NCBI GenBank assembly: GCA_018992565.1
Contig: JACVGW010000009.1
Location: forward strand, 1 to 57,311
Direction: 5' to 3'
Length of the DNA stretch: 57,311 nucleotides
DNA from: Theionarchaea archaeon
Lineage (GTDB): Archaea; Methanobacteriota_B; Thermococci; Methanofastidiosales; SZ-28-30
A model generated the notes under the pieces. It was given only the letters and a program-made list of their open reading frames with translations, was not told the origin of the DNA and did not search any database. Positions within the stretch are counted from its first letter, which is position 1. Every line of letters starts with the position of its first letter. Below are positions 20,900 through 51,816 of the stretch, piece by piece. The position numbers and the translations under genes were made by a program.

Positions 20900-22671
20900 G
20901 TTTCTCAAGTTTTGATGTCCGCGAAATGGTAGAAGAACTCCAGGAAGTCGTGGGCATGCGTTGTAACACAGTTTATCAAATCGGCAATCTGGTGAGAATC
21001 AAACTCTTCGGGAAGGGAAGAAAAGATCTGGCGATCACGAATGAAGCGTTCTATAATACCAGATATCCGCGTCAGGCTCCCCAGAAAGCCACTAATTTTG
21101 CCATGCTTCTCAGAAAGTACCTGAAGGGATGCTGGCTGTACCAGATCAACCAGGTGAATTTTGATCGGGTTGTGGAATTCCATTTTGGGTACAGTGAAGA
21201 ATCCCACTTTGTCCTGGTGGCAGAGCTCTTTGGGAAGGGAAATATCATCCTGCATTCACACAATGAGATTATTGGAGTGCTGCGCAAGGAGAAATGGAAG
21301 GACCGCATACTCTACCCTCACAAAGAGTATTCATATCCTCCTACCAGGTTGTCTATTGACCTGCCTCTTGCAGAGTTTGAAAAGCTGAACATCCAGACGG
21401 AAAAGGATCTGGCAGTGAACTTCAACTTGGGGAACCTGTATGCCAGAGAAGTCTTCCTGAGAGCAAAGAGCCCGTCTGCAGAGGATTTGTATGAAGCACT
21501 GCATTCTTTTGAAAAGAATCCAAATATCCTTGAGAACAACAGTGTGCTCCCCTATGATTTACTGGTGTACAAAGACTGTGAAAAGGAGTTTTTCCCTACC
21601 TTCACTGAAGCTGTGGATGAATTCTACAGACGGAAGGAAGACCTTTCTGTGGGGGAAGAAACTGAATCCCAGGAAGATAAAATTCTCAGGTTACAAAAAG
21701 AGGCTATCAAAGATTTTGAGGCAAAGAGAGACTTGTATAAGACATGTGGGGATCTCATATACCAAAACTACACCCTGGTGGAGGATGTCTTGAAGACTCT
21801 CATGGAAGCCAGAAAGACACATCCCTGGGAGGAGATTATATCCATTGTACAAAAAAGTGACCATAAAATTGCTCAGAAGATTATGGATATTGATTATCGT
21901 AATGCAAAAGTCGTAGTCGGGTTGAGTGAGCCTGTAACTCTTGATTTAACCCTGAATATTAATGAAAATGCGGCAGACTACTATGAAAGGGCCAAAAAAA
22001 TGGAAAGAAAGATTGAGGGTGCCAAAAAGGCAATGAAAAAACCGAAGAAAATTGAAAAAGTACCTCTTCCGAAACGGACTATTCTGCGGAAGAGAGAATG
22101 GTTCGAGAAGTTCCACTGGTGCCTGTCTTCAGAGGGTCATCTCATCTTGGGAGGAAGGGATACCAGAACTAATGAGTTACTGGTCAAGAAGTACATGGAA
22201 CCTACTGATGTGTATGTTCACGCAGATATTCAGGGCGCCACTTCAGTGGTTGTGAAGAAGGGGAAGGAAGCATCAACATACACTCTGGAAGAGGCAGCAC
22301 AATTCGCAGCTGCCTACTCCCGTGCCTGGAACCACTTTGGATCTCTGGAGTGCTACTGGGTGAATCCTGAACAGGTGACCAAGAGCCCACCGTCAGGGGA
22401 GTATTTGACTCCCGGGGCATTCTTCATTGCAGGATCCAAGAATTTCATGAAAGTGGACCTGGGTATTGCCCTGGGACTTCATGATGACAAAATCATGGGC
22501 GGTCCTGAGTCTGCAGTGAAGACTCATACGTCAGCCCACGTAGTTGTGGGATTTGGAGATGAGAAAAAGGAACGACTGGCCAAACAGATTGGGAAGATAT
22601 TAGACTATCCAGACATTGATGAAATCATAAGAGCCCTTCCTGGGAAGGGCAGAATTCTCAGCAGGAAGTGA
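20896..22671 (+). CDS. rqcH: Ribosome quality control factor Rqc2/RqcH (NFACT family)
   Basis: 'FAMLLRKYL', 'FDRVVEF', 'AELFGKGN', 'WFEKFHW', 'GGRD...NE', 'HADIQGA'. Real start ATG 20896 (ATGA overlap). Confidence 0.9.
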   Translation: MSFSSFDVREMVEELQEVVGMRCNTVYQIGNLVRIKLFGKGRKDLAITNEAFYNTRYPRQAPQKATNFAMLLRKYLKGCWLYQINQVNFDRVVEFHFGYSEESHFVLVAELFGKGNIILHSHNEIIGVLRKEKWKDRILYPHKEYSYPPTRLSIDLPLAEFEKLNIQTEKDLAVNFNLGNLYAREVFLRAKSPSAEDLYEALHSFEKNPNILENNSVLPYDLLVYKDCEKEFFPTFTEAVDEFYRRKEDLSVGEETESQEDKILRLQKEAIKDFEAKRDLYKTCGDLIYQNYTLVEDVLKTLMEARKTHPWEEIISIVQKSDHKIAQKIMDIDYRNAKVVVGLSEPVTLDLTLNINENAADYYERAKKMERKIEGAKKAMKKPKKIEKVPLPKRTILRKREWFEKFHWCLSSEGHLILGGRDTRTNELLVKKYMEPTDVYVHADIQGATSVVVKKGKEASTYTLEEAAQFAAAYSRAWNHFGSLECYWVNPEQVTKSPPSGEYLTPGAFFIAGSKNFMKVDLGIALGLHDDKIMGGPESAVKTHTSAHVVVGFGDEKKERLAKQIGKILDYPDIDEIIRALPGKGRILSRK

Positions 22672-22900: not shown

Positions 22901-23359
22901 ATGAGAGAGATCAACTTTCGTGATACAGACACTGCCGTGAGAGATAACGTGAAGGAACTTGAAGGTTCCATTGAATACTGTTATCAGTGCGGTACCTGTA
23001 CAGCATCCTGTCCCGTTTTTGAGGTTCATCCCGATTATAACCCACGAAAGATTATTCGAATGCTCGTACTGGGAATGCAGGACGTTGTAAGAGAAGACTT
23101 CGTATGGTTATGCAGTTCCTGCTATGCCTGTCAGGAGAGATGTCCTCAGGGTGTTCTGATACCACGCGTTATGAGGATTCTCACAAACATGGCCTTCTCT
23201 GAGGGATATGTGCCTCACGGTGTTGGTGTGCAGTATCAAAAGGTCAAGAATGATGGAGTTCTCTACACCCCATCTTCCTATGACAACAGAAAGAGGAAGA
23301 GCCTCCACCTGGAGGAAATTAATGAAGAATACGATGTTGCAGAGATCTTTGGGGGCTGA
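22901..23359 (+). CDS. hdrC: Heterodisulfide reductase subunit C
   Basis: 'CYQCGTCTASCP' and 'WLCSSCYACQERCP'. Confidence 0.9.
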   Translation: MREINFRDTDTAVRDNVKELEGSIEYCYQCGTCTASCPVFEVHPDYNPRKIIRMLVLGMQDVVREDFVWLCSSCYACQERCPQGVLIPRVMRILTNMAFSEGYVPHGVGVQYQKVKNDGVLYTPSSYDNRKRKSLHLEEINEEYDVAEIFGG

Positions 23360-23361
23360 CT

Positions 23362-24192
23362 ATGGACTATGCTCTCTACACTGGGTGTACCACCCCTGTG
23401 ATTGCACCGCACTATGAAGTATCTGCCAGGAGAGTCTGTGAATCTCTCAATATTGACCTCGAACTGCTGCATGCACCCTGTTGTGGCAATCCTCTAAAAC
23501 CAGTAAACGAGAAGGAAGCTGTAACCATGGCTCTGTATGTTTTGAGTCTTGCTGGCAGAGCCCCTTTGATGACCCTGTGCAGTGCATGCACGTCATCTCT
23601 GTTGGAAGCTAAGAAAAGGGCGGATACGGAGGCCCTGGAGAGGCTACATGTAGATAGGGAGAAAATCGAGAGGTTACAGGTCAAGCATTTTATACAGGTT
23701 TTGGTCGAGGAGTATGGACTGGAGCCTCTCAGGGATAGAATAGAAATTCCTCTGGACTGCAGAGTGGCTGTGCACTATGGATGCCATTTTCATCGTCCTT
23801 CTTCCCTGTATTCTGAGGACCCAGAATATCCCCATTTACTGGATGACCTGGTGGAAATCTGCGGAGCCTGTTCAGTTCCCTACAGGAGAAAATCCATGTG
23901 CTGTGGTTCTCCTGTGATGGGAGTGGACTTTGATGTTTCAGTGCAGATGACTGCCAAGAAACTGCAGGATATCAAAGGAAAGGCAGATATTATGGTTATT
24001 ACCTGTTCGGGATGTGGGTTCATGTTTGATAGAAAGCAGAAGAGTGTAGAATCTCTTACCGGGGAATTGAATATTCCTGTCCTGTACTATTCTCAGTTCC
24101 TTGGGTTAGCCCTGGGGATTCCTCCCGAGAAATTGGGATTTGAAATCAACAGGGTGCCGGTGAAATCGTTCTTGGAGAAGGTGCTTTCATGA
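23362..24192 (+). CDS. hdrB: Heterodisulfide reductase subunit B
   Basis: Two CCG domains: YTGC..PCCG..CSAC and HYGCH..MCCG..CSGC. Confidence 0.9.
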   Translation: MDYALYTGCTTPVIAPHYEVSARRVCESLNIDLELLHAPCCGNPLKPVNEKEAVTMALYVLSLAGRAPLMTLCSACTSSLLEAKKRADTEALERLHVDREKIERLQVKHFIQVLVEEYGLEPLRDRIEIPLDCRVAVHYGCHFHRPSSLYSEDPEYPHLLDDLVEICGACSVPYRRKSMCCGSPVMGVDFDVSVQMTAKKLQDIKGKADIMVITCSGCGFMFDRKQKSVESLTGELNIPVLYYSQFLGLALGIPPEKLGFEINRVPVKSFLEKVLS

Positions 24193-26870
24193 GGTCAGCC
24201 ATTATTGGTGCGGGTGTAGCAGGGGTGAGGGCTGCAGTAGAACTGGACAGCAGGGGTGCCAGTGTCTTACTCATTGAGAAGAATTATTACATTGGCGGGA
24301 AATTGACAGAATTGTCCAGGTTATACCCGGTCTGCGAATTGTATTATGCTCCTCGGTTTTTCTCCCAGTTGAATGACTCTCCCAATGTAGAAATCATGAC
24401 AGGGTCTGAAATCGTGAATATAGAAAGAAATGAGAAAGACATGTACGTCTTGACAATCCGGAAGACTCCCCGGTACGTCACTGAAGCCTGCACGCTCTGC
24501 CTGAAGTGTGTGGAAGTCTGCTCCCGTGGGGCTGTCCAGAAGCCTCCTTTTCAATCCGTACCTCAAATAATGGTTATTGACAGGGAAACATGTGGAGACT
24601 GCAGGATGTGTCAGGAGAGTTGCCCGGAACATGCCATCACCTTCAATGAGAAGGAAGAGATTGTCAGGAGAGAAGTGAAGGACATCATATTCTGTACAGG
24701 CTCAGAGTTGGTTGATCCAGGAGTGTATAGCGAGCTTGGATATGGACGGTTCCCGGATGTTATTACGTCCATGGAACTGGAGAAAATGCTTCATCCGTCC
24801 TTTGAATCAAAATTTACCAGACCTTCAGATGGGAAAAGACCTCAAAGAATTGCATTTCTCCAATGCGTGGGCTCACGAGATTCTGTACGAGGGGAGCCTT
24901 ACTGTTCCCGCGTCTGCTGCATGCAGGCACTGAATGAAGCCAGGATTATCAGAGAGAGGTATCCTGATACTGAGACGGTTATATTTTTCATCGATCTGCA
25001 GTGCGCAGGAAAGAGGTGGGAGGAGTTTTGTGAGAAGGCCAGGAGGATGGGGGTCACCTGTATCAGGTATCGAATACCTTCAGTGTATGAGGAGGACGGA
25101 AGAATCACTATATCCTATGCAGACGATGGACTGACAACCCTGAAGGTGGATCTGGTGGTACTGTCCACAGGTATTGCCCCTCCTGCGCGGACGTATGGGC
25201 TGCCCAGGAATGAGGTTGGATTTCCCACAGAAAAGGCATGTGGATTCTTCTTACACCCGGCAGATATCACTGAATCTGTTCAGGAGGCCCTGGCGTCTCT
25301 TTCCAGAATCCCCGGGTGCTCTTCCAGTGAGCCTGTGCATACCTGTGAGCCCGGGCTTGAAATCATCATATGCAGGTGCGGCAATGATTATTCGCAGCTT
25401 TCAGATGCGCTGAGGAATCGAGGGCATACAGTCCGTGAGGTTGACAACGTTTGTAAAGCAATACCACATGGGCTCCTGAGAAAGGAGAGAACAGTGGTGG
25501 GTGCGTGTGCTCTCCATGAACACCTGTTCATGAAGCTGGCTCGAGCAGGTGCCTCCTTTGTGGAAGTCATTCCATTGCGGGAAATGAATTGGACAGCAGG
25601 AGATCTAACCCAAAGAGAGAAGCTCATACAGATGGCAGTGGCCAGCCTGGAGCGGTTGGATACTTCGAGAGTTGTATGGTCACAGACAGATACGCTCCCC
25701 GCCGTGGTGGTCATTGGCGGTGGGGTGGCAGGGTTAACAGCAGCACTTGATCTGGCAGATACGTATAAAGTCTTCATCATTGAGAAGAGCCCACGCCTGG
25801 GTGGGAGAGCCCTCACTATCCAGTATTCTCTGGGATACAGTCCCCAGGAAATTGTACAGGACCTGATAACCAGAGCTGAAACTCATTCCAACATTGACAT
25901 TTTGACAGGAACTGAGATCACCACTCTGACAGGAGAACCGGGCAGGTTTACTGTGGGAACGGCCCGGGATGACATTGACTGTGGAGCCATAATACTGGCA
26001 GCAGGTGCAGATGAATTCCAGCACCAGTACAGCCACCCGAAGATCATCACACAGATGGAGCTCGAAGAGAGAATCCGGAAGAATGATATTCCGCAGCTGG
26101 TGGTCATGGTCCAGTGTGTGGGTTCGAGAACGCAGGAACATCCCTGGTGTTCTGCCGTCTGCTGTTCAAAAGCTGTCTCCAATAGCCTCAAGATCCTGGA
26201 GAAAACACAGTCTCAAATTCTCATCCTGTACAGAGATATGCGAACGTATGGATTTCAGGATGTCTCCTACAGGAAGGCCAGGGAAAAAGGGGTCATATTC
26301 CTGCAACAAGATGAGATGCCCGTAATACGGGTGGACACTTCTTTATCTGTGGTGTATGAAGATCCTGTTCTGCATACAAGAATAGTCATTGAACCTGATC
26401 TGCTTGTTTTGAGTACTGGTATCACGCCAAAAGAGGAATCTGGTGAACTGGCAAAGATTTTGGGGGTCTCTCTGGATCAAAATGGATTTTTCAGGGAATT
26501 ACATCCACTATTCTATCCAACAGACTCTGTAAGGAAAGGAATTTTTATATGTGGGCTCTGTCATTCTCCCCAGAACGTCATGGAGACCATGATACAGGCT
26601 AAGGCTGCAGCCTCCAGGGCGAGAACCTTCCTTTCTTCAGAATATGAGACGCATACTGCAATCACTGTTGATAGAGAGGTATGTACTGGCTGTTCTATTT
26701 GTGTGGAGGTGTGTCCATTCGGAGCTCTTTCTCTTGAGTCAGGTACCCTTTCTGTTGAGATGAGTCTCTGCAAGGACTGCGGTCTCTGTGTGGGCTCCTG
26801 TCCGGTGAGCGCTTTGAGCCAAACTGCACTCTCTGACGAGCAGGTTCTGGGAATGGTGGGGGCCCTATGA
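24189..26870 (+). CDS. hdrA: Large HdrA-like flavoprotein (two FAD modules plus ferredoxin domains)
   Basis: Two GxGxxG motifs, two 'QCVGSR...CSxVCC' motifs, internal and C-terminal 2x[4Fe-4S] motifs. Confidence 0.88.
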   Translation: MRSAIIGAGVAGVRAAVELDSRGASVLLIEKNYYIGGKLTELSRLYPVCELYYAPRFFSQLNDSPNVEIMTGSEIVNIERNEKDMYVLTIRKTPRYVTEACTLCLKCVEVCSRGAVQKPPFQSVPQIMVIDRETCGDCRMCQESCPEHAITFNEKEEIVRREVKDIIFCTGSELVDPGVYSELGYGRFPDVITSMELEKMLHPSFESKFTRPSDGKRPQRIAFLQCVGSRDSVRGEPYCSRVCCMQALNEARIIRERYPDTETVIFFIDLQCAGKRWEEFCEKARRMGVTCIRYRIPSVYEEDGRITISYADDGLTTLKVDLVVLSTGIAPPARTYGLPRNEVGFPTEKACGFFLHPADITESVQEALASLSRIPGCSSSEPVHTCEPGLEIIICRCGNDYSQLSDALRNRGHTVREVDNVCKAIPHGLLRKERTVVGACALHEHLFMKLARAGASFVEVIPLREMNWTAGDLTQREKLIQMAVASLERLDTSRVVWSQTDTLPAVVVIGGGVAGLTAALDLADTYKVFIIEKSPRLGGRALTIQYSLGYSPQEIVQDLITRAETHSNIDILTGTEITTLTGEPGRFTVGTARDDIDCGAIILAAGADEFQHQYSHPKIITQMELEERIRKNDIPQLVVMVQCVGSRTQEHPWCSAVCCSKAVSNSLKILEKTQSQILILYRDMRTYGFQDVSYRKAREKGVIFLQQDEMPVIRVDTSLSVVYEDPVLHTRIVIEPDLLVLSTGITPKEESGELAKILGVSLDQNGFFRELHPLFYPTDSVRKGIFICGLCHSPQNVMETMIQAKAAASRARTFLSSEYETHTAITVDREVCTGCSICVEVCPFGALSLESGTLSVEMSLCKDCGLCVGSCPVSALSQTALSDEQVLGMVGAL

Positions 26871-32573: not shown

Positions 32574-33203
32574 TTACTCAATATAGGTGAGAATCTGTTG
32601 AACTGATTTGCGTGGCGGAGAATCAGGGTTATGATCGGGAATTCCAACAGGAACGAGGGCCAGTATCTCCCATGGCTCATGAATATTGAGAAGTCTTTCC
32701 AGTTCATCATGGGCATAGTATGGGATGCGAACCCAGCATGAACCATATCCACAGTCGAGAGCTGTCAGCAGGAGATTCTGAACTGCAGCCCCAACGCTCT
32801 GGACACTGACGAATCCCCCGTATCGATCAATGGCTCTATCTCTGAGGGCGCGTTCTTCTTGAAATATACGGAAATTTGGATCTCTCTCCAGGGAAAAGGG
32901 CATGACCAGCACTGCAAAGACCAGAGGTGCAGTCGAGAAAACCAATGAGGAGGCAATGCGCCGGGCCGCAGATTTATTATCTGTGTGGTTGAAGAAGGCA
33001 ACTCCCTCGTCATGGATAATGCGTCTCATCTCATCTCTATATCCCTTGTTTGTTATAGCGATAAACCGCCACGGCTGCAGGTTTCCACCACTTGGCGCCA
33101 GGGAAGCTGCGTGAATCATTTTTTCAATATCTTTTCTGGGCACAGGATCGGACTTGAATCGCCGGATGCTTCGCCTTTCACGTATGACAACTTGAAGATC
33201 CAT
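32574..33203 (-). CDS. Nitroreductase family flavoprotein
   Basis: 'RRSIRRF', 'APSGGNLQPWRF', 'GAAVQNLLL.A...GYGSCW'. Confidence 0.9.
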   Translation of the reverse strand: MDLQVVIRERRSIRRFKSDPVPRKDIEKMIHAASLAPSGGNLQPWRFIAITNKGYRDEMRRIIHDEGVAFFNHTDNKSAARRIASSLVFSTAPLVFAVLVMPFSLERDPNFRIFQEERALRDRAIDRYGGFVSVQSVGAAVQNLLLTALDCGYGSCWVRIPYYAHDELERLLNIHEPWEILALVPVGIPDHNPDSPPRKSVQQILTYIE

Positions 33204-33675
33204 ATAGACACCTACGAAGACACATCACTCCCAGTGCCGCTTTGTTGACCTGTGATATTCTGAAGAGTGATAGAGCTCCAGCAATCCACGTATCCGTAAA
33301 TGAATTGTGGTCTCCATCTTGGGCACAAGAGGTACTCGACAGAATCCAGATGCATTCATATAGGTTTGCCATACTTCAAGAGCAGTTACTTTTGAGGTGG
33401 AGCCCATGAAAGGACTAGTCTTTGATCCACGCAGGATACATCCCCTGTGAGACCCTGCGCTCTTCTGCCGGCTCTGCTTATCCGTTCTCACGCACACAGA
33501 GACTCTCTCCCGGATGAGTCGCCGTTTTTCCATGACGTTACCATGAGCACAGCCTGACTCCCACGTAATTTCAGCAGTTAATTTCCAAAAAAAACGACCT
33601 TTTATCCCTGAAAACTCATATAAACTTTCCTGACAAGAAGTCACATCTATGTGCTCTGTAATAAGAGGTGAAAAC

Positions 33676-34260
33676 ATGAAACCTTCGGACATAAATGCAG
33701 ACAAGGAGTATCTAGCATGGGATGAGAACTGCATCTGGTTGTGTAGAGAAAATGATGCTATCATTACGAGAATCCATTCAATTGGAGCGCAGCTCACCGT
33801 GAGGGTCAATGCAGAAGGGGTAAGCCTCTGGAAATTGTGTGATGGAACTCGGACTCTTGAAGACATCATTACTTTCCTGGAAGATGAGTACTATACCCCA
33901 CGTGAAATCCTGATACGAGACGTGGCATGTGCAGTGGAAGCTCTTTCAGGAATGGGATTGATTGTCACGAGAAAGGAAAAGAAGCAGTCTTTCCAGCATA
34001 TCTACAGTGTAGAAAACCATGTACGCTGGGCAGATGATGTAATACTCAGAGAAGAGGATGGAGAACTCATATTGATGAACCTGAGTACCAGTCATGTATA
34101 TGAGTTGCCTCATAAATTCCTGCCTATACTAGAAGAATGCAAAAAAGGCCACACAATAGCAGAAATCCAGAATCAGGTGGGAGAAGGGTGTGATGTAGTG
34201 AACTACGTGCTTGAATATCTGGACAACCTTGGTCTGATTGTTGTCAATTCCCAAGAGTGA
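33676..34260 (+). CDS. Tandem PqqD/RRE peptide-binding protein 1
   Basis: Two PqqD-like repeats ('NAEGVSLWKLCDGTRTLEDI...L...Y...DV...L...GLI' and a degenerate second copy). RBS GAGGTGA. Confidence 0.82.
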   Translation: MKPSDINADKEYLAWDENCIWLCRENDAIITRIHSIGAQLTVRVNAEGVSLWKLCDGTRTLEDIITFLEDEYYTPREILIRDVACAVEALSGMGLIVTRKEKKQSFQHIYSVENHVRWADDVILREEDGELILMNLSTSHVYELPHKFLPILEECKKGHTIAEIQNQVGEGCDVVNYVLEYLDNLGLIVVNSQE

Positions 34261-34265
34261 CTATC

Positions 34266-35624
34266 ATGAGAGTCAGTCTTTTCACACAGCTTTTGAAGAT
34301 GGATGAAGGGAGGTATCTTCTTCTCAATCCCGTCTCTGGGAACATACGTGTTGTAGATAATGAAGTCGCAGACTTCCTTTCAGAATATAGTGAGACAGGA
34401 TTGGATGGAGAGAGAATTGAAGGGCGGTTACTGGAAATACTCAAAAGAGAGGGGTATATCACTGATTTTACTGAAGAAGAGGAGAAAAATAGAATACTAG
34501 ATGCAAGTAGTGCTGTATCACAACGTCCTGTTTATGCGCATGCGATTATCATCACCTATAGATGTAACCTTGAATGTTCATACTGCATCAACAGTTCTTT
34601 GCTCGGTAGCGCTCCTTCCTGGCTGAATAAGAGAATCTCCAGAGATTCTGTTGACAAGGCCTTCGCCGTCATGAAGGATATGAAGGAAAAAACGGTAAGA
34701 CGTCATCCCATTTACGTGACAGGAGGGGAGCCCCTCCTTCCAGAAAACAGAGCGATTGTGGAGTATATACTGGATCTTTCTGCGCATTCAGGGGACAAGG
34801 TAGCTGCAAACACCAATGGATATTACCTTGCTCAATATGCTGATCTCTTTGAAAAGTATGGGACCTTCACCATGGCGGGAGTCACGCTTGATGGCCCCCC
34901 CACTGTGCACGACAGAAGAAGGAAGACAGGACAGGGCCCGGGTTCCTTCTGGAGAATCGTTGAAGGAATTGAGGCCATCAGGCCCCTTTCAATACATGTA
35001 GGCATTCGGGTCAATGTTGATAAAACGAATATTGATGCTCTTCCCGAACTTGTTGCCTTTTTTGAAGAGCGCGGATGGGCAGACGACAAGCATTTCTCGT
35101 TTTGTGTGTGCAGAGTTCTCAGGACAGGTACTCCACATGATGCCTGTCTCCTGACTCCGCTCGAGGCCATACAGAAGATAATTACCATGCATACAGAAGG
35201 TGTGCTACCTCGGTACATGAAATATGAATGTTCTTACAGCAACCCCGGGACTCTCTGGGGCACCTTGCAGGGAAAAGGACCGCTTCGTCCCCGATTGTAC
35301 TATTGTCCGGGTCTCGGTGAGACCTTCATATATGATCCTCATGGTGATATCTATGGTTGTCCACAGCTGGTGGGAAATCCGGAATACAGAATCGGAACAT
35401 ATGCCCCTCACTTCAAGCTGGAGCCCTTTCTTGATACGCTTAAGGCGAGGACGCCGTTGAACATGGCTGAATGCAGGGAGTGTACGTACGCTCTCTTATG
35501 TGGCGGAGGATGTGGCTACAATGCCCACATTGAACATGGCTCTTTCATGTCACCATATTGCGAGGAAACTGAGGCCTTCCTCACGTACTGGGTCCCCTTC
35601 TACCTCAAAAGACTCATTCAGTAG
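34266..35624 (+). CDS. Radical SAM/SPASM peptide maturase with N-terminal RRE (rSAM-1)
   Basis: CNLECSYC, GGEP, 'HDRRR...GSF'; SPASM C..DPHGDIYGC...CRECTYALLCGGGC...PYC. Confidence 0.9.
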   Translation: MRVSLFTQLLKMDEGRYLLLNPVSGNIRVVDNEVADFLSEYSETGLDGERIEGRLLEILKREGYITDFTEEEEKNRILDASSAVSQRPVYAHAIIITYRCNLECSYCINSSLLGSAPSWLNKRISRDSVDKAFAVMKDMKEKTVRRHPIYVTGGEPLLPENRAIVEYILDLSAHSGDKVAANTNGYYLAQYADLFEKYGTFTMAGVTLDGPPTVHDRRRKTGQGPGSFWRIVEGIEAIRPLSIHVGIRVNVDKTNIDALPELVAFFEERGWADDKHFSFCVCRVLRTGTPHDACLLTPLEAIQKIITMHTEGVLPRYMKYECSYSNPGTLWGTLQGKGPLRPRLYYCPGLGETFIYDPHGDIYGCPQLVGNPEYRIGTYAPHFKLEPFLDTLKARTPLNMAECRECTYALLCGGGCGYNAHIEHGSFMSPYCEETEAFLTYWVPFYLKRLIQ

Positions 35625-35647
35625 TTGAAAGCAGTCAAGCGACGAAC

Positions 35648-36349
35648 ATGGCAGAGGTATCACAGAGACCCTGGGAAGCTGCGTACAGTAAGGGAGTAGG
35701 CATAGTGGAGAGACCTGCGTTTCTTACCTATCTGGCAGCTGAGATGATGAAGAGGGAAACCCTCAAGAGCGTACTGGATATTGGCTGTGCCGCAGGCAGA
35801 AATTCAGTCTTCCTGGCGAGAGAAGGATTTGATGTCGTGGGCATTGAACCACAGTCAACTATTCTGGAAGTAGCACGCAGCAAAGTATCTGATGAGGGTG
35901 CAAAGCCACGGCTTCTGCTGGGAGACCTGGTTGATCTTCCCTTCAAGGAGTCATCATTTGATGCTGTCCTGTGTTTATATGTCCTCATGTTCCTCCCAGT
36001 GGTGAAATTGGCCACGTGCGTGCGGAATATTTTTCAAGTCCTTCGGGACTCAGGAATGGCATTTTTTGCTTTCTATTCTCCTGAAGACGCAAGTTTTGAA
36101 ATGGGAGAATGTCTCCATGAGAACACCATACGATGGGACAGGAGGATGGGCCCCTGGGCAGGAATTGAAGCACACTATTTCACTCACGAGGAAATTCTTC
36201 ACCTTTTCAACACAGTTGAGATTCTATCTCTTCACCTGGTAACGCAGAGGGAAACACATGATGGAGTACCCCATGTACATAGGTTCTGGCAGGTTATTTG
36301 CAGAAAAGACTCCACAACCTGTACTCCCGTGAAAGAGAGAACAGGGTGA
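35648..36349 (+). CDS. Class I SAM-dependent methyltransferase (island-associated)
   Basis: 'VLDIGCAAGR', 'LPFKESSFDAVLC'; begins 23 nt after rSAM-1. Confidence 0.88.
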   Translation: MAEVSQRPWEAAYSKGVGIVERPAFLTYLAAEMMKRETLKSVLDIGCAAGRNSVFLAREGFDVVGIEPQSTILEVARSKVSDEGAKPRLLLGDLVDLPFKESSFDAVLCLYVLMFLPVVKLATCVRNIFQVLRDSGMAFFAFYSPEDASFEMGECLHENTIRWDRRMGPWAGIEAHYFTHEEILHLFNTVEILSLHLVTQRETHDGVPHVHRFWQVICRKDSTTCTPVKERTG

Positions 36350-36371
36350 AAGGGTTATGCTGGAAAAGTCC

Positions 36372-37538
36372 TCAGAGGCTTCTTCTTCCTGGTGGTACAG
36401 AACATTGCGGATCTGGCATGAATGGATCACCATAGTATCCGTAGGAAATGCATGAGGCCCCTCCAGAGCAGAGGTATGGAGCATTGGTATTGAAATAGCA
36501 GGTCTGGCACTTCCCTTTGACGTGCTTTGACTTCCGTCGGAGTTTCCACAGGAGAGGGTGGCCCCATATGTCCTGGATGTCTTGTGTCAGGATATTGCCT
36601 ATAGGAATGGGAAGTCTCCGACATGGATAGACACTACCATCTTCCATGACATTGATGATATTCTTACCAATGTTGCCACCGATTCCGCATGAAACTCCAT
36701 TCTTGGCGTGATTTGATGTATCAGCAGGGTCTTGGTATATGACAGGCCAGTCACATCGAGAGCGAGTGAGCACGGGCTTGGGAATAAGGGGCGCAGCTTC
36801 TCTCGTCATGGAATCAAGATCGTCGCTGAGGTTCCTGTATAGAGCATACGTCTCCTGAGAAGTCAGCATTGTGTTCAGCATCTCTTTCCCCCTTCCCCAG
36901 GGCACGAGGCGAGTCACTGTCAATACATCCACATCTAGTTCCTTTGCCAGGGCCATAATGTGGAAGGCATCTTTGTAGTTGCCCTTATGAACAACAAAGT
37001 GCATATGGACCTCCAGTGATGTGAGAGTCAGTGTCCTGATAGCCTGTATCGCTTCCTGGAATCTCCCGCTGCCCCGAATTCTATCATGGGTTTCAGCCGA
37101 AACACCGTCCACACTGATTTGAATATAATTGACAGCTCTGTTTTCCTCGAGTCTATCAGCAAGTGTCCTGGTGGTGGTAGATCCATTGGACAGGACTGCA
37201 ACATGGACGGGAGTCAGGTGATCTTCAACATAATCCTGCAAGTAGGCAAGGATATCCCAGAAGTGAGGTGAAATTGTGGGCTCCCCTCCAGATATCCAGA
37301 TATAGGGAGTTCTTCCCCACTTCTTCATGGTTGTCAGGAACTTGTCAATCACGAGCATACACTGATCAAGTGGCATGTCATAGTGCGGTTCATCTTCATT
37401 GTAGCAATGTCTGCAGCGCAGGTTACACCGACCGGTGATCTGAAATTGCATAACAAAGAACTTCCTCCTGTCAGTTCTCTCAGTTGTCCTGATATCTCTC
37501 TTTCTCGAGACGTAACCTGGTTCACTCGGTTCTCTCAT
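36372..37538 (-). CDS. Radical SAM/SPASM protein without RRE (rSAM-2, class II)
   Basis: 'MQFQITGRCNLRCRHCY', GGEP, 'TRLVPWGRG', 'RCDWP'; SPASM 'YPCRRLP...CQTC...CSGGASC...DPQC'. Confidence 0.9.
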   Translation of the reverse strand: MREPSEPGYVSRKRDIRTTERTDRRKFFVMQFQITGRCNLRCRHCYNEDEPHYDMPLDQCMLVIDKFLTTMKKWGRTPYIWISGGEPTISPHFWDILAYLQDYVEDHLTPVHVAVLSNGSTTTRTLADRLEENRAVNYIQISVDGVSAETHDRIRGSGRFQEAIQAIRTLTLTSLEVHMHFVVHKGNYKDAFHIMALAKELDVDVLTVTRLVPWGRGKEMLNTMLTSQETYALYRNLSDDLDSMTREAAPLIPKPVLTRSRCDWPVIYQDPADTSNHAKNGVSCGIGGNIGKNIINVMEDGSVYPCRRLPIPIGNILTQDIQDIWGHPLLWKLRRKSKHVKGKCQTCYFNTNAPYLCSGGASCISYGYYGDPFMPDPQCSVPPGRRSL

Positions 37539-38907
37539 GAGGTATTCCCTCTCTCCATTTTCCTCTCATCTCGTAAAGAAACTGCAGGTATGAATTGACC
37601 CAGGAGTCTGTGATGTCTCGCGGTAGTGGGCATATTGGATTCTCAAAAGACCCCGTTGTCTGGAAAGCTTCGTATGCGCAGCCTGAGCCGCAGAGCAACC
37701 CATACTTACATCTCCTGCACTGCTCAATACGTGCTACATTCCTGGTTCTCATTTTCTGACGTTCTTCGTCATAGAGTTCGAATGTTGGGGAATATCTGCC
37801 GATTTCATGTTGCAGGACAGTGCACGAATAGATTATCCCTTCAGGGTCAAATACAAATCCGTATGGCGTATAGCAGCAGTTGACAGACAGCAGGTCCTCT
37901 CTTGCTTCGAATTTTCGAGACGCAGAGAGCTTCAACCATGAGTCAAAGAAATTTGTGAAGGTATTATAGAAGTTGAAGAGTCGAGTTGAAGGAAATTTCC
38001 TGTGTAATTCCATGAGTCTTTCCAGCATGTCATACCATTTCAAAAAATAGGGATATTCTGAGCTCACGAATTTTATTGTACTGACTACAAATGAGAGATG
38101 CCTGTCTTCATGCCATCCTCGAGATATCACAAAGTCTGCAACCTCAGGCAAATACTCTATGTTCTGGCTATCTGCATTGAACTTCAGTACTATGTTCACA
38201 TGTTTACGTGCTTCCTCTATATTCTGCACGATAGACTCAAATGTCCCACTGCCATCTCTTCTGATTCGTCGTTTGTCATGAATTCGCTGAGGACCATCCA
38301 GGGATACCTTAACCGGTATCTGATATTTTCTCAGCAGCGGAAGATATACATCCATATCCACTCCATTTGTGGTTATGCTGAGAAGGTTCATCTTCCTCTT
38401 TGCAGCCTCATGAAGAATTGAAGAGACTATGTCTTCATGTGCGGGCAGCAGAGGTTCCCCTCCTGTCAGGGACAATTGGGAAGAGGTGATCCCTTCCTGA
38501 TCAAAGAGCTTATCAAGGGCAGCACTGAACAAATCAATGGGCAGCTTCTTTGAGGGTGAGTCATTCTTTATATCAGATCGTAATCTCCGGAAGCAGTAGA
38601 CGCACTTCAGCTGGCAATCGTAGGAAGGTATTGCAATACATACTGCTATCTTCCTCCATGTCGCTGCCTCTTTTTGGTGCAGATCTTCTACGAGTGCTTC
38701 ATCCTCGCGATAGTCTTCGACTATGTAATGATTTCTTTTTAGGAATTCTTGAGTATCTTCCTGTCCTCCCCCGGTTCTATCGGCGTCTGGGCATGTGAGT
38801 ACTCTAATGACATCCTCATCGACTTCGTGCATCGTTCCTCGAAGGAAGTTCATTAGGAGATACTTCCCTTCCGAGACTTTACAGTAATGAGTGTACGGGC
38901 TGATCAT
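37522..38907 (-). CDS. Radical SAM/SPASM peptide maturase with N-terminal RRE (rSAM-3)
   Basis: CQLKCVYC, GGEP; SPASM 'DPEGIIYSC...CRRCKYGLLCGSGC...PIC'. ATG 38907 after GGAGG, directly downstream of precursor P1. Confidence 0.9.
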   Translation of the reverse strand: MISPYTHYCKVSEGKYLLMNFLRGTMHEVDEDVIRVLTCPDADRTGGGQEDTQEFLKRNHYIVEDYREDEALVEDLHQKEAATWRKIAVCIAIPSYDCQLKCVYCFRRLRSDIKNDSPSKKLPIDLFSAALDKLFDQEGITSSQLSLTGGEPLLPAHEDIVSSILHEAAKRKMNLLSITTNGVDMDVYLPLLRKYQIPVKVSLDGPQRIHDKRRIRRDGSGTFESIVQNIEEARKHVNIVLKFNADSQNIEYLPEVADFVISRGWHEDRHLSFVVSTIKFVSSEYPYFLKWYDMLERLMELHRKFPSTRLFNFYNTFTNFFDSWLKLSASRKFEAREDLLSVNCCYTPYGFVFDPEGIIYSCTVLQHEIGRYSPTFELYDEERQKMRTRNVARIEQCRRCKYGLLCGSGCAYEAFQTTGSFENPICPLPRDITDSWVNSYLQFLYEMRGKWREGIPHERTE

Positions 38908-38920
38908 CCTACTCTCCTCC

Positions 38921-38933
38921 AAAAAAAGAAAAA
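38921..38933 (-). terminator. Oligo-T tract between P1 and rSAM-3 (probable leaky archaeal terminator)
   Basis: TTTTTCTTTTTTT on the minus strand, 10 nt after the P1 stop. Confidence 0.45.
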
Positions 38934-38943
38934 TGTGGCAAGG

Positions 38944-39093
38944 CTAAAACCACACCATGCTACAATGGCACTCCTGGCCTAGGCACGCACAGCATGCGCA
39001 GCCACAAATACCGCACGGATTGTTATCTGGGGTAGTGCCTTCGATGTTAATGGTTATTCCTTGCCACGTTTTGCCTACTTCCTTGATTTTCAT
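38944..39093 (-). CDS. RiPP precursor P1, 49 aa, 8 Cys: MKIKEVGKTWQGITINIEGTTPDNNPCGICGCACCACLGQECHCSMVWF
   Basis: Hand-translated. RBS AAGGTGAG, TATA CTTATAAG at 39133-39140, Cys-free leader plus Cys-dense core, first gene of the rSAM-3/rSAM-2 operon. Confidence 0.85.
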   Translation of the reverse strand: MKIKEVGKTWQGITINIEGTTPDNNPCGICGCACCACLGQECHCSMVWF

Positions 39094-39475
39094 GTTCTCA
39101 CCTTCAATTATATGTGAGAGACCAAAGTGCTTCTTATAAGTTTTGTACGGTCCAAAGGCAGTTTTTTTGCAGGGGAACTTCCATGAATTAGTTACTGGGT
39201 TCTCCCTTTACAGGAAAAGAGCTTTCATACAACAGAGCTGGAAAACACCACAGCACACAATGGAATCTATGCCTCAGAAAGAGCAGTTGCATTCTTGACA
39301 ACTGTACCTCTTATGAGGCATGTTCCCAAAGATAATTCTCTTATTAGAGGTATCAAGATGAAAAAAGCACTAATTGAGTAGATTTGATGTCCGATGTGTG
39401 GCAGCCAATTGGGACCGGTACACGTCTTGAAATGTGAAGGGATTGAAGGCCAGTCCATGCAGTGGATTAATCCCT

Positions 39476-40447
39476 TCAAAGGTTCTTTGCTATATGATAT
39501 TCAATGATAGCATGTTCTTCACTGTGGATTATCTCTTTTTTCAGCAGCTTATTTGTCAATGAGAGCAGACAGGGTTGGAACCCCTGGAATCCTTTGAAGT
39601 CGTTGCTTCTGACAATGTCCTTCTTCAGATGTGCGAGCACAAATAGTCTGTCTGAAACTCTGAAGAAAAGACTTGATGTAGGAATCTGGGAAAACAGGTC
39701 TATGATAAAGTCCTCGTACTCTGTTCGAAAACAGAAGAGGTAGGGATCATATTCTGAGATTCCTTCAGGGAAGTAACTGGTGGTGACAGTGCAGCACGTG
39801 GGCAATTTTGCCAGGAACTTGTAAACCTTCGCTGTAGTGATCAAATGCTCTCTCATTACGGGAATGAACGTTTTCCTCAGGTTATGCCTGAAATACGTCA
39901 GTAGGTTCTCATCTTCTGAATCCCACTCTGCGGTCTCATTCCAATGTGTCCTTATGGCACATTGGGGGTTATATCTCAGAGGGCTAAAATCGTCTATCTT
40001 ATTCCTGATGGTTTCAAGCGCTTGATTCCATGAGCAGTCTGGAGCGTAGGACATGTAGTAATCGGAACGAGGAGCTTCTACCAGGATTTCCCCACTAATG
40101 TCCACTCTTTCTTTTGAAATAATCCATGAATTTGCAAACCCAGTCATTTTCGCATGATAGGATATATTTGAGTCTTTTTCAAGACGTGTGTACGTTTCGA
40201 GAGGATCCTTTGCACTACAAAAAGAAATGTATTCCTTCATGTTAGCATATGAACGCTTCCTGACATGAGGACCCAGTATGTGACTTCCTTCCATTGCTTC
40301 TTCTATTCTCCTGCTCGCGGTGCGGGGATCCACGCCAAGAGCAGCTGCTATCTCTTTCTTCTTGATTCGAGGGTTCTTGAACCACAGAATTTCATACAGC
40401 CTCCTATACTGCTTCATCCTATCCTCAAGACTGATGAGCATTTTCAC
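39476..40447 (-). CDS. ~320-aa winged-HTH putative transcription regulator, paralog A
   Basis: N-term 'NPRIKKKEIAAALGVDPRTASRRI' is an Lrp-like HTH; paralogous over its full length to 50851-51816. Confidence 0.7.
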   Translation of the reverse strand: MKMLISLEDRMKQYRRLYEILWFKNPRIKKKEIAAALGVDPRTASRRIEEAMEGSHILGPHVRKRSYANMKEYISFCSAKDPLETYTRLEKDSNISYHAKMTGFANSWIISKERVDISGEILVEAPRSDYYMSYAPDCSWNQALETIRNKIDDFSPLRYNPQCAIRTHWNETAEWDSEDENLLTYFRHNLRKTFIPVMREHLITTAKVYKFLAKLPTCCTVTTSYFPEGISEYDPYLFCFRTEYEDFIIDLFSQIPTSSLFFRVSDRLFVLAHLKKDIVRSNDFKGFQGFQPCLLSLTNKLLKKEIIHSEEHAIIEYHIAKNL

Positions 40448-40946
40448 TTCCTCCCTTCTTCGAAACAGGAATGCTACTACTGATCTGCAGATAAACCATC
40501 GAATGAGATAGATATCATGCTGCTCATGCCATCTGAGTCTTTTCCAGGTTCTTCTTCTCTCAGTCTCCAGCTCCTCACTTCACTCGGTTTTGATTGTATA
40601 TGTTGAATTCCTACTATTAGATGTAGTAGCTAGTGTTTCTTTTCCTTTTGATATTTATATCTATTTCCCAAACCTCATTGGTATTTTTTTTTAAAGGGAG
40701 ATTTTGTAGGGATTTCCTTCAACCAAGACTCTTTCAAAGGGATTTGATGAATTTATTCCCCCTCTTACAGTCACAAAGGTGAGGAGGTCACACACATCGT
40801 TCCACACGGATCATGGATCTCAGCTCGTATTTGCTATAGTTGCCCAGTATCTCATCTCAGCGTAATCGCTGATAGAGAAACAGGGAGGCATAGACTACGA
40901 GAATAAAAGAACATGTGTCTTGAACCGTTGAGACTGAACCTGCTGC

Positions 40947-50850: not shown

Positions 50851-51816
50851 ATGGATACAAGTAAAGAAGTCAGGAGGAGACATTACCGTGCGATCTACGA
50901 ACTTTTCTGGTCAGAGAACGCCCGAATCCACCTGAAGGATATTGCATCGAGACTCCGGGTCAATCCCCGTACGGCACGGAGAAGAGTAGAAGAAGCTTTT
51001 AGCCAGGGCTACGTTACAGGACCTCAGCTCAGGAAACGGTCATATGCGAATATGAAGGAATATGTTTGCTTCGTCAATTGTGAAAACCCCACTGAAGCAT
51101 ATCTCGATCTTAGCCAGGATGCAGCCGTTGTATATCACGCACGACTGGCAGGATTCGCCAGTTTATGGGTTAGTTCAACAAGAAAAGTGACCATTGATGG
51201 CACTCCCGTGATTAAAGGCCTGCGTTCAGACTATCATGTGTCATTTGCGCCCTATCGTTCATGGGAAAAGGCAATAGAAGTCATGCGGGGAAAGATTGAA
51301 TCCTTTCATCCAGAGTGTTATGAACCCACATCGCACATTAGCTCCCACTGGGATGAAACCATAACGTGGGATGAAGAAGATGAAAAGCTCTTTCGATACT
51401 TCGAGTCTGACTTGAGGAGGATTTTCGTACCTGTCATGAAGAAACATCTCATCAGCACAGGGAAAATCTACCAGTTCCTGGAAAGACTTCCTCAATGCTG
51501 TACTGTCACAACAAGCTTCTTTCCAGAGGGGATCTCAGCTTACGACCCTTATCTCTTTGTTTTTGGGACTGAATATGAGGATTTCATCGTTGATCTCTTT
51601 TCACAGATGCCGACATCAGCTTTCTTTTTCAAGGTCTCAGACATGCTCTTTCTTCATGCGCATGTAAAGAAGGACTTGATGAGATGCGAGGATTTGGGTG
51701 CTCCTAGCATACGTCAGCTGCCCATCCCGGGTCTCATCAGTGAACTCCTCAAGAAGGGAATCATTGAGAGTGAAGAACACGCTGTGGTTGAGTATCACTG
51801 GACAAAGAGTCTCTAG
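50851..51816 (+). CDS. ~320-aa winged-HTH putative transcription regulator, paralog B
   Basis: HTH 'NARIHLKDIASRLRVNPRTARRRV'; shares 'RKRSYANMKEY' and 'FPEGIS.YDPYLF.F.TEYEDFI.DLFSQ' with paralog A. Confidence 0.7.
   Translation: MDTSKEVRRRHYRAIYELFWSENARIHLKDIASRLRVNPRTARRRVEEAFSQGYVTGPQLRKRSYANMKEYVCFVNCENPTEAYLDLSQDAAVVYHARLAGFASLWVSSTRKVTIDGTPVIKGLRSDYHVSFAPYRSWEKAIEVMRGKIESFHPECYEPTSHISSHWDETITWDEEDEKLFRYFESDLRRIFVPVMKKHLISTGKIYQFLERLPQCCTVTTSFFPEGISAYDPYLFVFGTEYEDFIVDLFSQMPTSAFFFKVSDMLFLHAHVKKDLMRCEDLGAPSIRQLPIPGLISELLKKGIIESEEHAVVEYHWTKSL

Follow-up and report, generated by a model that had tools for sequence, protein, structure and literature searches.

The P1 locus and its gene cassette

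We analysed a 57,311-nt stretch of DNA from a Theionarchaea archaeon (contig JACVGW010000009.1 of assembly GCA_018992565.1; hereafter the window), in which a small gene, P1, lies among genes for radical S-adenosylmethionine (SAM) enzymes that we numbered rSAM-1 to rSAM-8. P1 is probably the translated precursor peptide of a radical-SAM-dependent pathway that makes a RiPP (a peptide synthesized by the ribosome and modified post-translationally). Its translation from the minus strand (window positions 38944-39093) is MKIKEVGKTWQGITINIEGTTPDNNPCGICGCACCACLGQECHCSMVWF followed by a stop codon. As the first-pass annotation had described, eight Cys fall within 18 residues of the core CGICGCACCACLGQECHC behind a Cys-free leader: the Cys occupy positions 27, 30, 32, 34, 35, 37, 42 and 44 with gaps of 3, 2, 2, 1, 2, 5 and 2 and make up 44% of the core, while residues 1-26 contain none. 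Such density is rare in the 2.8-Mb genome: all six frames together give 53,052 open segments of 30 aa or more, of which 7, P1 included, reach eight Cys in 18 residues, and two of the seven lie in a simple repeat on contig C91. An open frame with eight Cys in 18 residues (..NCDTCCTCSCQVCICECY..) was also seen on the minus strand at G000:C30:10148-10384 (G000 being the window's genome), ~15 kb from the radical SAM cassette of contig C30.

No in-frame ATG, GTG or TTG was found upstream of the P1 start, which is preceded by a ribosome-binding site at short distance (Table 1). The five other precursors with a clear start, namely P2 and P3 of the window and those on contigs C29, C30 and C97, carry GAGGTGA at the equivalent place. 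A candidate promoter and a possible terminator were read from the sequence alone; oligo-T is a termination signal for archaeal RNA polymerase, and GGAGGAG lies 3' of the TTTTTCTTTTTTT tract, ahead of the rSAM-3 ATG at 38907. P1 matched no Pfam family, those of metallothioneins included, and no NCBIfam model even at E ≤ 10, SCIFF and all other precursor models included. It contains no selenocysteine codon or in-frame TGA, and no tandem repeats of ACGX, which we take to be the repeat motif of the ACGX system. P1 looks like a real gene with the features of archaeal small genes, and it is presumably translated into a peptide.

The P1 stop codon lies 36 nt before the rSAM-3 start, rSAM-3 and rSAM-2 overlap by 17 nt, and 22 nt separate the end of this minus-strand trio from that of a plus-strand trio, PqqD-1, rSAM-1 and a methyltransferase gene, in which PqqD-1 and rSAM-1 overlap by 4 nt. 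These distances bear out the first-pass description of P1 as the head of an operon with rSAM-3 and rSAM-2 that converges on PqqD-1, rSAM-1 and the methyltransferase. The cassette is larger than was described at that stage: the nitroreductase-family gene, the helix-turn-helix (HTH) gene upstream of P1 and the genus-wide expansion described below had been overlooked. A nitroreductase gene also belongs to a paralogous cassette on contig C140, and the nitroreductase of the window is therefore counted in the P1 cassette.

Table 1. Features of the P1 cassette and of the related precursors P2 and P3, in window coordinates
Feature	Position	Strand	Description and basis
P1	38944..39093	-	Gene for a putative precursor peptide of 49 aa; leader at residues 1-26 and Cys-rich core at 27-49
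GGTGA	39098..39102	-	Ribosome-binding site, 4 nt before the P1 ATG; read from sequence
AAAACTTATAAG	39133..39144	-	Candidate archaeal TATA box, ~44 nt before the P1 ATG; predicted
TTTTTCTTTTTTT tract	38921..38933	-	Possible partial oligo-T terminator between the P1 stop and rSAM-3; predicted
rSAM-3	37522..38907	-	Long radical SAM/SPASM protein with N-terminal RiPP recognition element (RRE)-like domain, 461 aa from ATG 38907; Pfam Radical_SAM
rSAM-2	36372..37538	-	Short radical SAM/SPASM protein without RRE, 388 aa; Pfam Radical_SAM 33-191, SPASM 291-348
PqqD-1	33649..34260	+	Tandem PqqD-like (RRE) protein, 203 aa; Pfam PqqD 51-105, repeat seen against PqqD-2
rSAM-1	34257..35624	+	Long radical SAM/SPASM protein with N-terminal extension, 455 aa; Pfam/NCBIfam scans
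Methyltransferase	35648..36349	+	Class I SAM-dependent methyltransferase, 233 aa; Pfam Methyltransf_25/11
Nitroreductase	32574..33203	-	Nitroreductase-family flavoprotein, probably a cassette member; Pfam Nitroreductase E=7.9e-33
HTH protein	39476..40447	-	Candidate regulator upstream of P1; weak winged-HTH Pfam match
P2	41108-41272	+	Homologous to P3; leader MKAISLNKKLW.DV, different Cys-rich core
P3	47242-47409	+	Homologous to P2; leader MKAISLNKKLW.DV, different Cys-rich core

Radical SAM/SPASM enzymes

The window encodes six long radical SAM/SPASM proteins (455-546 aa by ORF-finder lengths) that are 24-42% identical to each other, and two short ones, rSAM-2 and rSAM-5, that are 52% identical. 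The short proteins have no room for a recognition domain because their radical SAM domain begins near residue 30. An alignment of 16 sequences shows no variation at the CX3CX2C residues of rSAM-3 (C98, C102 and C105) or at seven Cys of its SPASM domain. The AlphaFold (AF2) model of rSAM-3, with a mean predicted local distance difference test score (pLDDT) of 80.5, places three strands and three helices at the N terminus, which in the model is the layout of an RRE. The best solved match of rSAM-3 by both sequence and fold was the thioether synthase CteB (5WHY/5WGG, fold match over 471-480 columns), which was also the best PDB sequence match of rSAM-1.

Among the NCBIfam models, CefB scored best for all six long proteins (110-168 bits against a cut-off of 600) and its profile also aligned to their N-terminal domains. 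TIGR04463 came second for five of the six and fifth for rSAM-3 (84-150 bits against 525), and PapB was in the top four for each. The best models of rSAM-3 were CefB, PapB and geopeptide maturase, all far under their cut-offs, and rSAM-1 scored 78 of 425 bits for SCIFF (TIGR03974), 94 of 340 for PapB (NF047865), 138 of 600 for CefB (NF038107) and 100 of 525 for TIGR04463. With CteB, CefB, PapB and TIGR04463 as nearest relatives, sequence comparison supports the long enzymes as radical SAM/SPASM proteins of the peptide-maturase type, which is what had been proposed for the neighbours of P1 at first pass.

The short enzymes have other relatives. PqqE, at the top, and SkfB were the best PDB sequence matches of rSAM-2, and its best NCBIfam models were TIGR04053, the ACGX-system radical SAM protein (TIGR04340, 137 bits against 400), NirJ and SbtM (TIGR04082, 121 against 350), all under cut-off; MftC gave 116 against 265 and PqqE 74 against 381. 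SbtM was in the top five models for both short enzymes (121 and 133 bits), and the MftC scores of the two were 116 and 141 bits. PqqD-1 and PqqD-2 weakly matched the GeoRSP PqqD model. A complex prediction for rSAM-3 and P1, with both given as alignments, scored 0.05 against a mark of 0.32, a result that counts for neither side.

Recurrence of the cassette within the genus

At the thresholds used, the enzyme families were found in one genus only. Genes like rSAM-3 (E ≤ 1e-30) were found in 3 of 61 related genomes and genes like rSAM-2 (E ≤ 1e-60) in 3 of 133 genomes of the phylum, all of them in the genus of the window; at the same thresholds, none were found in the other 58 and 130 genomes, respectively. 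Within the genus the families are expanded: G000 carries 30 open reading frames (ORFs) of the long family (E ≤ 1e-20) and seven places that match the short family, and a sister species, G001, has 10 long-family and four short-family matches. In G000, family members were found on contigs C4, C29, C30, C52, C62, C64, C71, C97, C102, C105, C128, C132, C140 and C154. A tree of the 30 long paralogs resolved recurring orthogroups, which we refer to as types 1, 4, 6, 7 and 8. Type 1 joins rSAM-1 with paralogs on C140 and C29 (support 99), type 4 joins rSAM-4 with C29, the PqqD-adjacent type 6 joins rSAM-6 with C62, C97 and C30, and types 7 and 8 join rSAM-7 and rSAM-8, respectively, with C30.

The paralogous cassette on C140 contains two short radical SAM proteins 55% and 51% identical to rSAM-2, a type 1 long radical SAM protein 34% identical to rSAM-1, a methyltransferase 25% identical to that of the window, a PqqD-like protein and a frame for a Cys-rich peptide, with an ABC ATPase adjoining. 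Its best-conserved component is the nitroreductase, 63% identical to that of the window. The Cys-rich frame (...IPKVWKGIVVTTGEVQTNAVIQNPRGYCCGGCGSGCSFAGATGCK, G000:C140:15848-16096 on the plus strand, equal to L033:3849-4097) has no clear start codon; an ATG after a perfect GGAGGTGAG site sits one base out of frame with the core, a mismatch that a frameshift or assembly error might explain, as might an unusual start.

On contig C10 of G001, a precursor is followed by three long radical SAM proteins and then by a fusion of PqqD with a short radical SAM/SPASM protein, and this fusion supports the pairing of PqqD-1 with rSAM-2. The fusion protein is 616 aa long (L066:11302-13152, plus strand), the precursor there reads MRMESLNE...KCGGCACGCFVVNCMGLSAC, and a major facilitator superfamily transporter is encoded upstream. 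The position of P1, directly upstream of a long radical SAM gene, is also that of the precursors in the C29 and G001 C10 cassettes.

The NKKLW-leader precursor family

P2 and P3 belong to the second and third sub-clusters of the window (P2, rSAM-4, rSAM-5, rSAM-6, PqqD-2, P3, rSAM-7 and rSAM-8). The two precursors, each with GAGGTGAT ahead of its ATG, are together flanked by four long radical SAM/SPASM orthogroups, one short radical SAM protein and a tandem PqqD protein. A search with P2 and P3 of the small ORFs of the genome added precursors on two contigs, C29 and C97, as well as one on C30 that starts with GTG, and two more were found in G001 (C18 and C10). The Cys-rich small ORFs of C29 and C30 lie ~0.3 kb or less from long radical SAM genes, and that of C97 shares its contig with one. 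At least six precursors in one genome end in unrelated C-termini (WF, FF, HF, HW, RW and IC), and the cores of the family are hypervariable in the alignment.

A profile of ten peptides gave 19 matches at E ≤ 0.001 among 1.84 billion representatives. The 15 that were retrieved are all 46-76 aa long; their leaders resemble MKA..LNKKLWTD, and their cores are rich in Cys and Gly, for example GCGGCGCGGCCC..LC..LIC. Two of the 19 are long proteins (P0027 and P0039) that match in 5-8 stretches, probably by composition. The Pfam and NCBIfam scans returned no model that names these precursors. Across 185,579 species genomes, the leader pattern MK....NKKLWT, which misses members that start with ME or carry other leader variants, found 17 DNA stretches with one true family member, a record named 'Theionarchaea archaeon' whose peptide is identical to that of G001.

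P1 is at best a remote member of this family. The K.W and PD landmarks that the first-pass annotation had noted in P1, P2 and P3 do align, and the alignment of P1 extends over leader and core, but profiles built from the leader do not find it, and the landmarks carry no statistical significance by themselves. With a full-length profile of 17 members built without P1, P1 was the best non-member among 19,278 small ORFs (E=0.0028, 17.6 bits), and with a five-member full-length profile it was found at E=0.046. A distinct subfamily with a 'P1-type leader' was also considered and was dropped, since neither a W-x-G-I-like profile nor the leader-only profiles supported it. Among the family members, P1 is the most Cys-dense and has the richest set of tailoring enzymes. 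A feature search (Atlas) placed it, as a lead, near bacteriocin clusters and clusters of radical-SAM-modified Cys-rich RiPPs with scores of 0.78-0.87.

Other small ORFs lie beside long radical SAM genes of the same genome. Three on the plus strand of C71 (G000:C71:19789-19899, 21374-21472 and 21673-21771) start with MKCEKVE, end with CPP.PC.C(I/V)NI and flank a long radical SAM gene (C71:19884-21236). The three appear to form a second precursor family that is unrelated to the first. On C154, a small plus-strand ORF (G000:C154:3199-3306, MNMTILIEAEEQIMEPLCITEGTGSWCCKICHPYV) directly upstream of two long radical SAM genes of a more distant clade is another candidate precursor.

Distribution and populations

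Among 5.77 billion proteins, P1 has a single homologue, 92% identical, which keeps all eight Cys and differs by four substitutions (V6I, N16D, A36V and E41A). It comes from a metagenome-assembled genome (MAG) named Candidatus Methanofastidiosia archaeon, and this second MAG also encodes an rSAM-3 ortholog, 88% identical; every other match of rSAM-3 is at most 30% identical. In 61 related genomes, P1 had no credible match besides itself (best non-self E=0.015), and no relatives of rSAM-3 with flanking DNA were found in genome or metagenome contigs.

The P1 locus was found nearly unchanged in contigs of 20 DNA sequencing runs from seven studies of marine, estuary, mangrove and soil samples, so the organism is widespread enough for metatranscriptomics. 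Positions 38944-39093 are invariant across the contigs of three runs that cover P1 (X20, X9 and X13, from three studies; contigs of run X19 do not cover it). This invariance says nothing on selection because the whole 4.2-kb stretch around P1 is nearly identical between contigs, with 1-15 differences per long piece.

Neighbouring genes

The HTH protein upstream of P1 has a 52% identical paralog at 50851-51816 on the plus strand, which adjoins rSAM-8. Both are ~320 aa long with a weak N-terminal winged-helix match, and the pair brackets the radical SAM region. At least 14 more paralogs are scattered over the genome, and none of those checked lies less than 5 kb from a long radical SAM gene. Elsewhere in the window, a ferredoxin-like protein, a CCG-domain protein and an 893-aa FAD/4Fe-4S oxidoreductase are encoded in a row on the plus strand (22901-26870) and resemble a heterodisulfide-reductase set. 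McrA had no match in the genome, which is 88% complete.

Comparison with known systems

The P1 system probably falls within the known group of Cys-rich RiPPs modified by radical SAM/SPASM enzymes and is unusual in its multi-enzyme cassette, its unnamed and lineage-restricted precursor family and its archaeal host. It most resembles the ranthipeptide or SCIFF systems (thermocellin from CteA and CteB, freyrasin from PapA and PapB), in which the maturase is encoded beside a short precursor whose leader lacks Cys and whose C-terminal core is rich in Cys. Of the features by which ranthipeptides and sactipeptides are recognized, we found the precursor beside a maturase and, in rSAM-3 as in the known enzymes, an N-terminal RRE-like domain, the CX3CX2C motif and a seven-Cys SPASM domain for two auxiliary clusters, but neither a score above a curated maturase cut-off nor a match to a curated precursor family. 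Where SCIFF and PapB systems have one maturase, the P1 cassette has three radical SAM/SPASM enzymes together with PqqD, methyltransferase and nitroreductase proteins, its precursor has no SCIFF match, its core holds far more Cys than classical acceptors and its host is an archaeon.

Another relative is the CrpA/CrpB/CrpC system of Methanococcus voltae, which likewise joins an archaeal RRE-radical SAM-SPASM enzyme with a Cys-rich substrate that has a leader-like N-terminus; the methanogen enzyme CrpC, of TIGR04463, installs ranthionine at C-X-X-Q/D motifs (PMC13692751). P1 has one site of the C-X-X-Q type found in CrpA. By the same source, CrpA contains ten 17-residue repeats in a protein of 28.8 kDa, against the 49 aa of P1, and the Crp cluster contains one radical SAM enzyme, whereas the P1 cassette contains three. 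The 'Cys-every-fifth' system CefA/CefB (NF038107) supplies the best curated model for the long enzymes, but the Cys of P1 are irregularly spaced. Literature searches with the keywords ACGX, TIGR04340, Cys-every-fifth, CefB and TIGR04463 returned nothing relevant among the papers listed, and those combining Methanofastidiosa or Theionarchaea with 'radical SAM' likewise returned no description of the P1 system among theirs.

In pairing a short radical SAM/SPASM protein that lacks an RRE with a PqqD-family chaperone, rSAM-2 resembles PqqE, MftC, SbtM, GeoRSP and ACGX systems, from which the P1 cassette differs in the tandem repeat of its PqqD protein and in reaching no model cut-off. The SbtM score of rSAM-2 and the missing in-frame TGA in P1 set it apart from the SbtA/SbtM thio(seleno)oxazole system, the PqqE and MftC scores and the differing family C-termini from PQQ and mycofactocin, and the ACGX score and missing tandem repeat from the ACGX system. 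For the thiazole/oxazole-modified microcins (linear azoles), no YcaO was found among the scanned ORFs of the window, the single match of the genome lying on another contig, C46, and the O2-dependent MNIO family (DUF692) had no match in the Pfam scans.

Interpretation of the P1 system

The pathway that we propose for P1, from the enzyme that binds it to every chemical step, would run on the observed genes as follows. The Cys-free leader (about residues 1-26) would be bound by RREs: rSAM-3 and rSAM-1 would each read it via their own N-terminal RRE, and the tandem PqqD-1 would present the peptide to the short, RRE-less rSAM-2. Three different radical SAM/SPASM enzymes would then act on residues 27-49. 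Those of the long, CteB-like kind would most probably remove a hydrogen from an acceptor residue and link a Cys sulfur to it, a step proposed by analogy with CteB, PapB and QhpD (PMC11002830) and with CrpC (PMC13692751), and the outcome would be several intramolecular thioether rings of the ranthionine or sactionine type. C37-L-G-Q40 is the one site in P1 that fits a published acceptor motif, and Q40 is the better acceptor candidate because the homologue has Ala in place of the adjacent E41. Further tailoring would come from the short enzyme, the methyltransferase and the nitroreductase-family flavoprotein; thiooxazole formation as by SbtM is one possibility for the short enzyme, with nothing specific in its favour. 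The most likely product would be a multiply thioether-cross-linked RiPP.

Several observations weigh against this proposal. No enzyme of the cassette reached a curated NCBIfam family cut-off, and rSAM-3 in particular scored 68 of 425 bits for SCIFF (TIGR03974), 97 of 340 for PapB, 110 of 600 for CefB and 84 of 525 for TIGR04463; in the tree of the 30 long proteins it is a long-branch singleton without a close paralog. The P1 core offers few classical acceptors, with its one C-X-X-Q site and an E41 that the homologue does not keep. Leader-only family profiles did not retrieve P1 (no match at E ≤ 50), nor did a profile of three peptides with W-x-G-I-like leaders (E ≤ 20), and the link to the family therefore rests mostly on the Cys/Gly core and the kind of cassette. 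No protease or exporter was found among ORFs of at least 150 aa at 15.5-19.4 kb and 20.7-56.3 kb of the window. Finally, no RNA run contains the locus (window 33600-40500).

A bolder reading is, in our judgement, unlikely. P1 and its relatives would then represent a new archaeal RiPP class, in which three to five different radical SAM/SPASM enzymes, a tandem PqqD protein and a flavoprotein alter almost every residue of a Cys/Gly core of ~20 residues until it becomes a cage built from thioethers, sulfur heterocycles or both. In sulfidic sediments, radical chemistry would in this way give a metal-binding or redox-active peptide under anaerobic conditions. The role would be analogous to that of methanobactin-like chelators, but the P1 product would be made without oxygen.

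We also regard as unlikely, and slightly more doubtful, a metal chelator in which radical SAM chemistry (the short enzyme might, for example, turn Cys into 5-thiooxazole as SbtM does) is combined with the remaining free thiolates to give a metallophore or metal chaperone for sulfidic, anoxic sediment. The Cys content of the core would suit such a product, SbtM is among the top five models of both short enzymes and is known to form thiooxazole from Cys (PMC11002830), and CrpABC of Methanococcus voltae, a proposed metal binder, is upregulated on pyrite (PMC13692751). With no YcaO or MNIO found in the respective scans, a radical SAM route is what is left for a chelator. The SbtM score is nevertheless far under its cut-off and no better than those of NirJ, AhbD, MftC and ACGX, the cassette showed no gene for a metal transporter or receptor, and the hypervariable family cores fit natural products that diversify better than a chelator whose binding site is fixed.

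It is improbable, because the family cores and C-termini vary widely, that P1 serves as a sacrificial scaffold from which a small cofactor is made, in the manner of PqqA for PQQ or MftA for mycofactocin. In such a pathway a few residues would be processed by PqqD, the short PqqE/MftC-like enzyme and the flavoenzyme and afterwards cut out. The PqqD-family proteins, the MftC and PqqE matches of the short enzymes, the flavoprotein conserved in the cassette and the lack of an exporter in the scanned ORFs would all be suited to this. A cofactor pathway would, however, keep its reacting residues, whereas at least six precursors differ at the C-terminus; the scores stay under the MftC and PqqE cut-offs, and two further CteB-like maturases per cassette would be left unexplained.

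The leader, the ribosome-binding site and the Cys conservation, together with a gene context that recurs, make the two remaining explanations unlikely. It is very improbable that P1 stays unmodified, as a metallothionein-like or Fe-S-binding mini-protein that just happens to adjoin radical SAM genes. Its Cys density and the Cys-rich proteomes of methanogen-related archaea (PMC13692751) would fit, but no metallothionein or other Pfam family matched, the 26-residue leader would have no role, and other Cys-rich small ORFs accompany long radical SAM genes on C29, C30 and the contig of C97 and on C18 and C10 of G001. The first-pass annotation had taken occurrence in genomes without radical SAM genes as the mark of a plain metallothionein, and the MAG of the sole homologue encodes the rSAM-3 ortholog. 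Least probable of all is a chance open frame, which would account for a short ORF with no family match or expression data but not for a ribosome-binding site at the right spacing, a Cys density reached by so few open segments, a peptide called in a second MAG with all Cys kept, or the precursor position shared with the C29 and G001 C10 cassettes.

Radical-SAM-modified peptides of archaea are almost unstudied. Archaeal radical SAM RiPP clusters are described as predicted but uncharacterised in PMC12144867, and the one archaeal SPASM thioether synthase that we found in the literature, reported in 2026, acts on a protein and not on a peptide (PMC13692751). The uncultured sediment lineage studied here has ~30 maturase paralogs, together with precursors of a family that no database names. 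If the enzymes of the proposed RiPP pathway are active, they would perform new radical chemistry on a minimal substrate, provide a test case for several SPASM enzymes that share one 18-residue core and possibly yield a new anaerobic metal-binding or antimicrobial scaffold.

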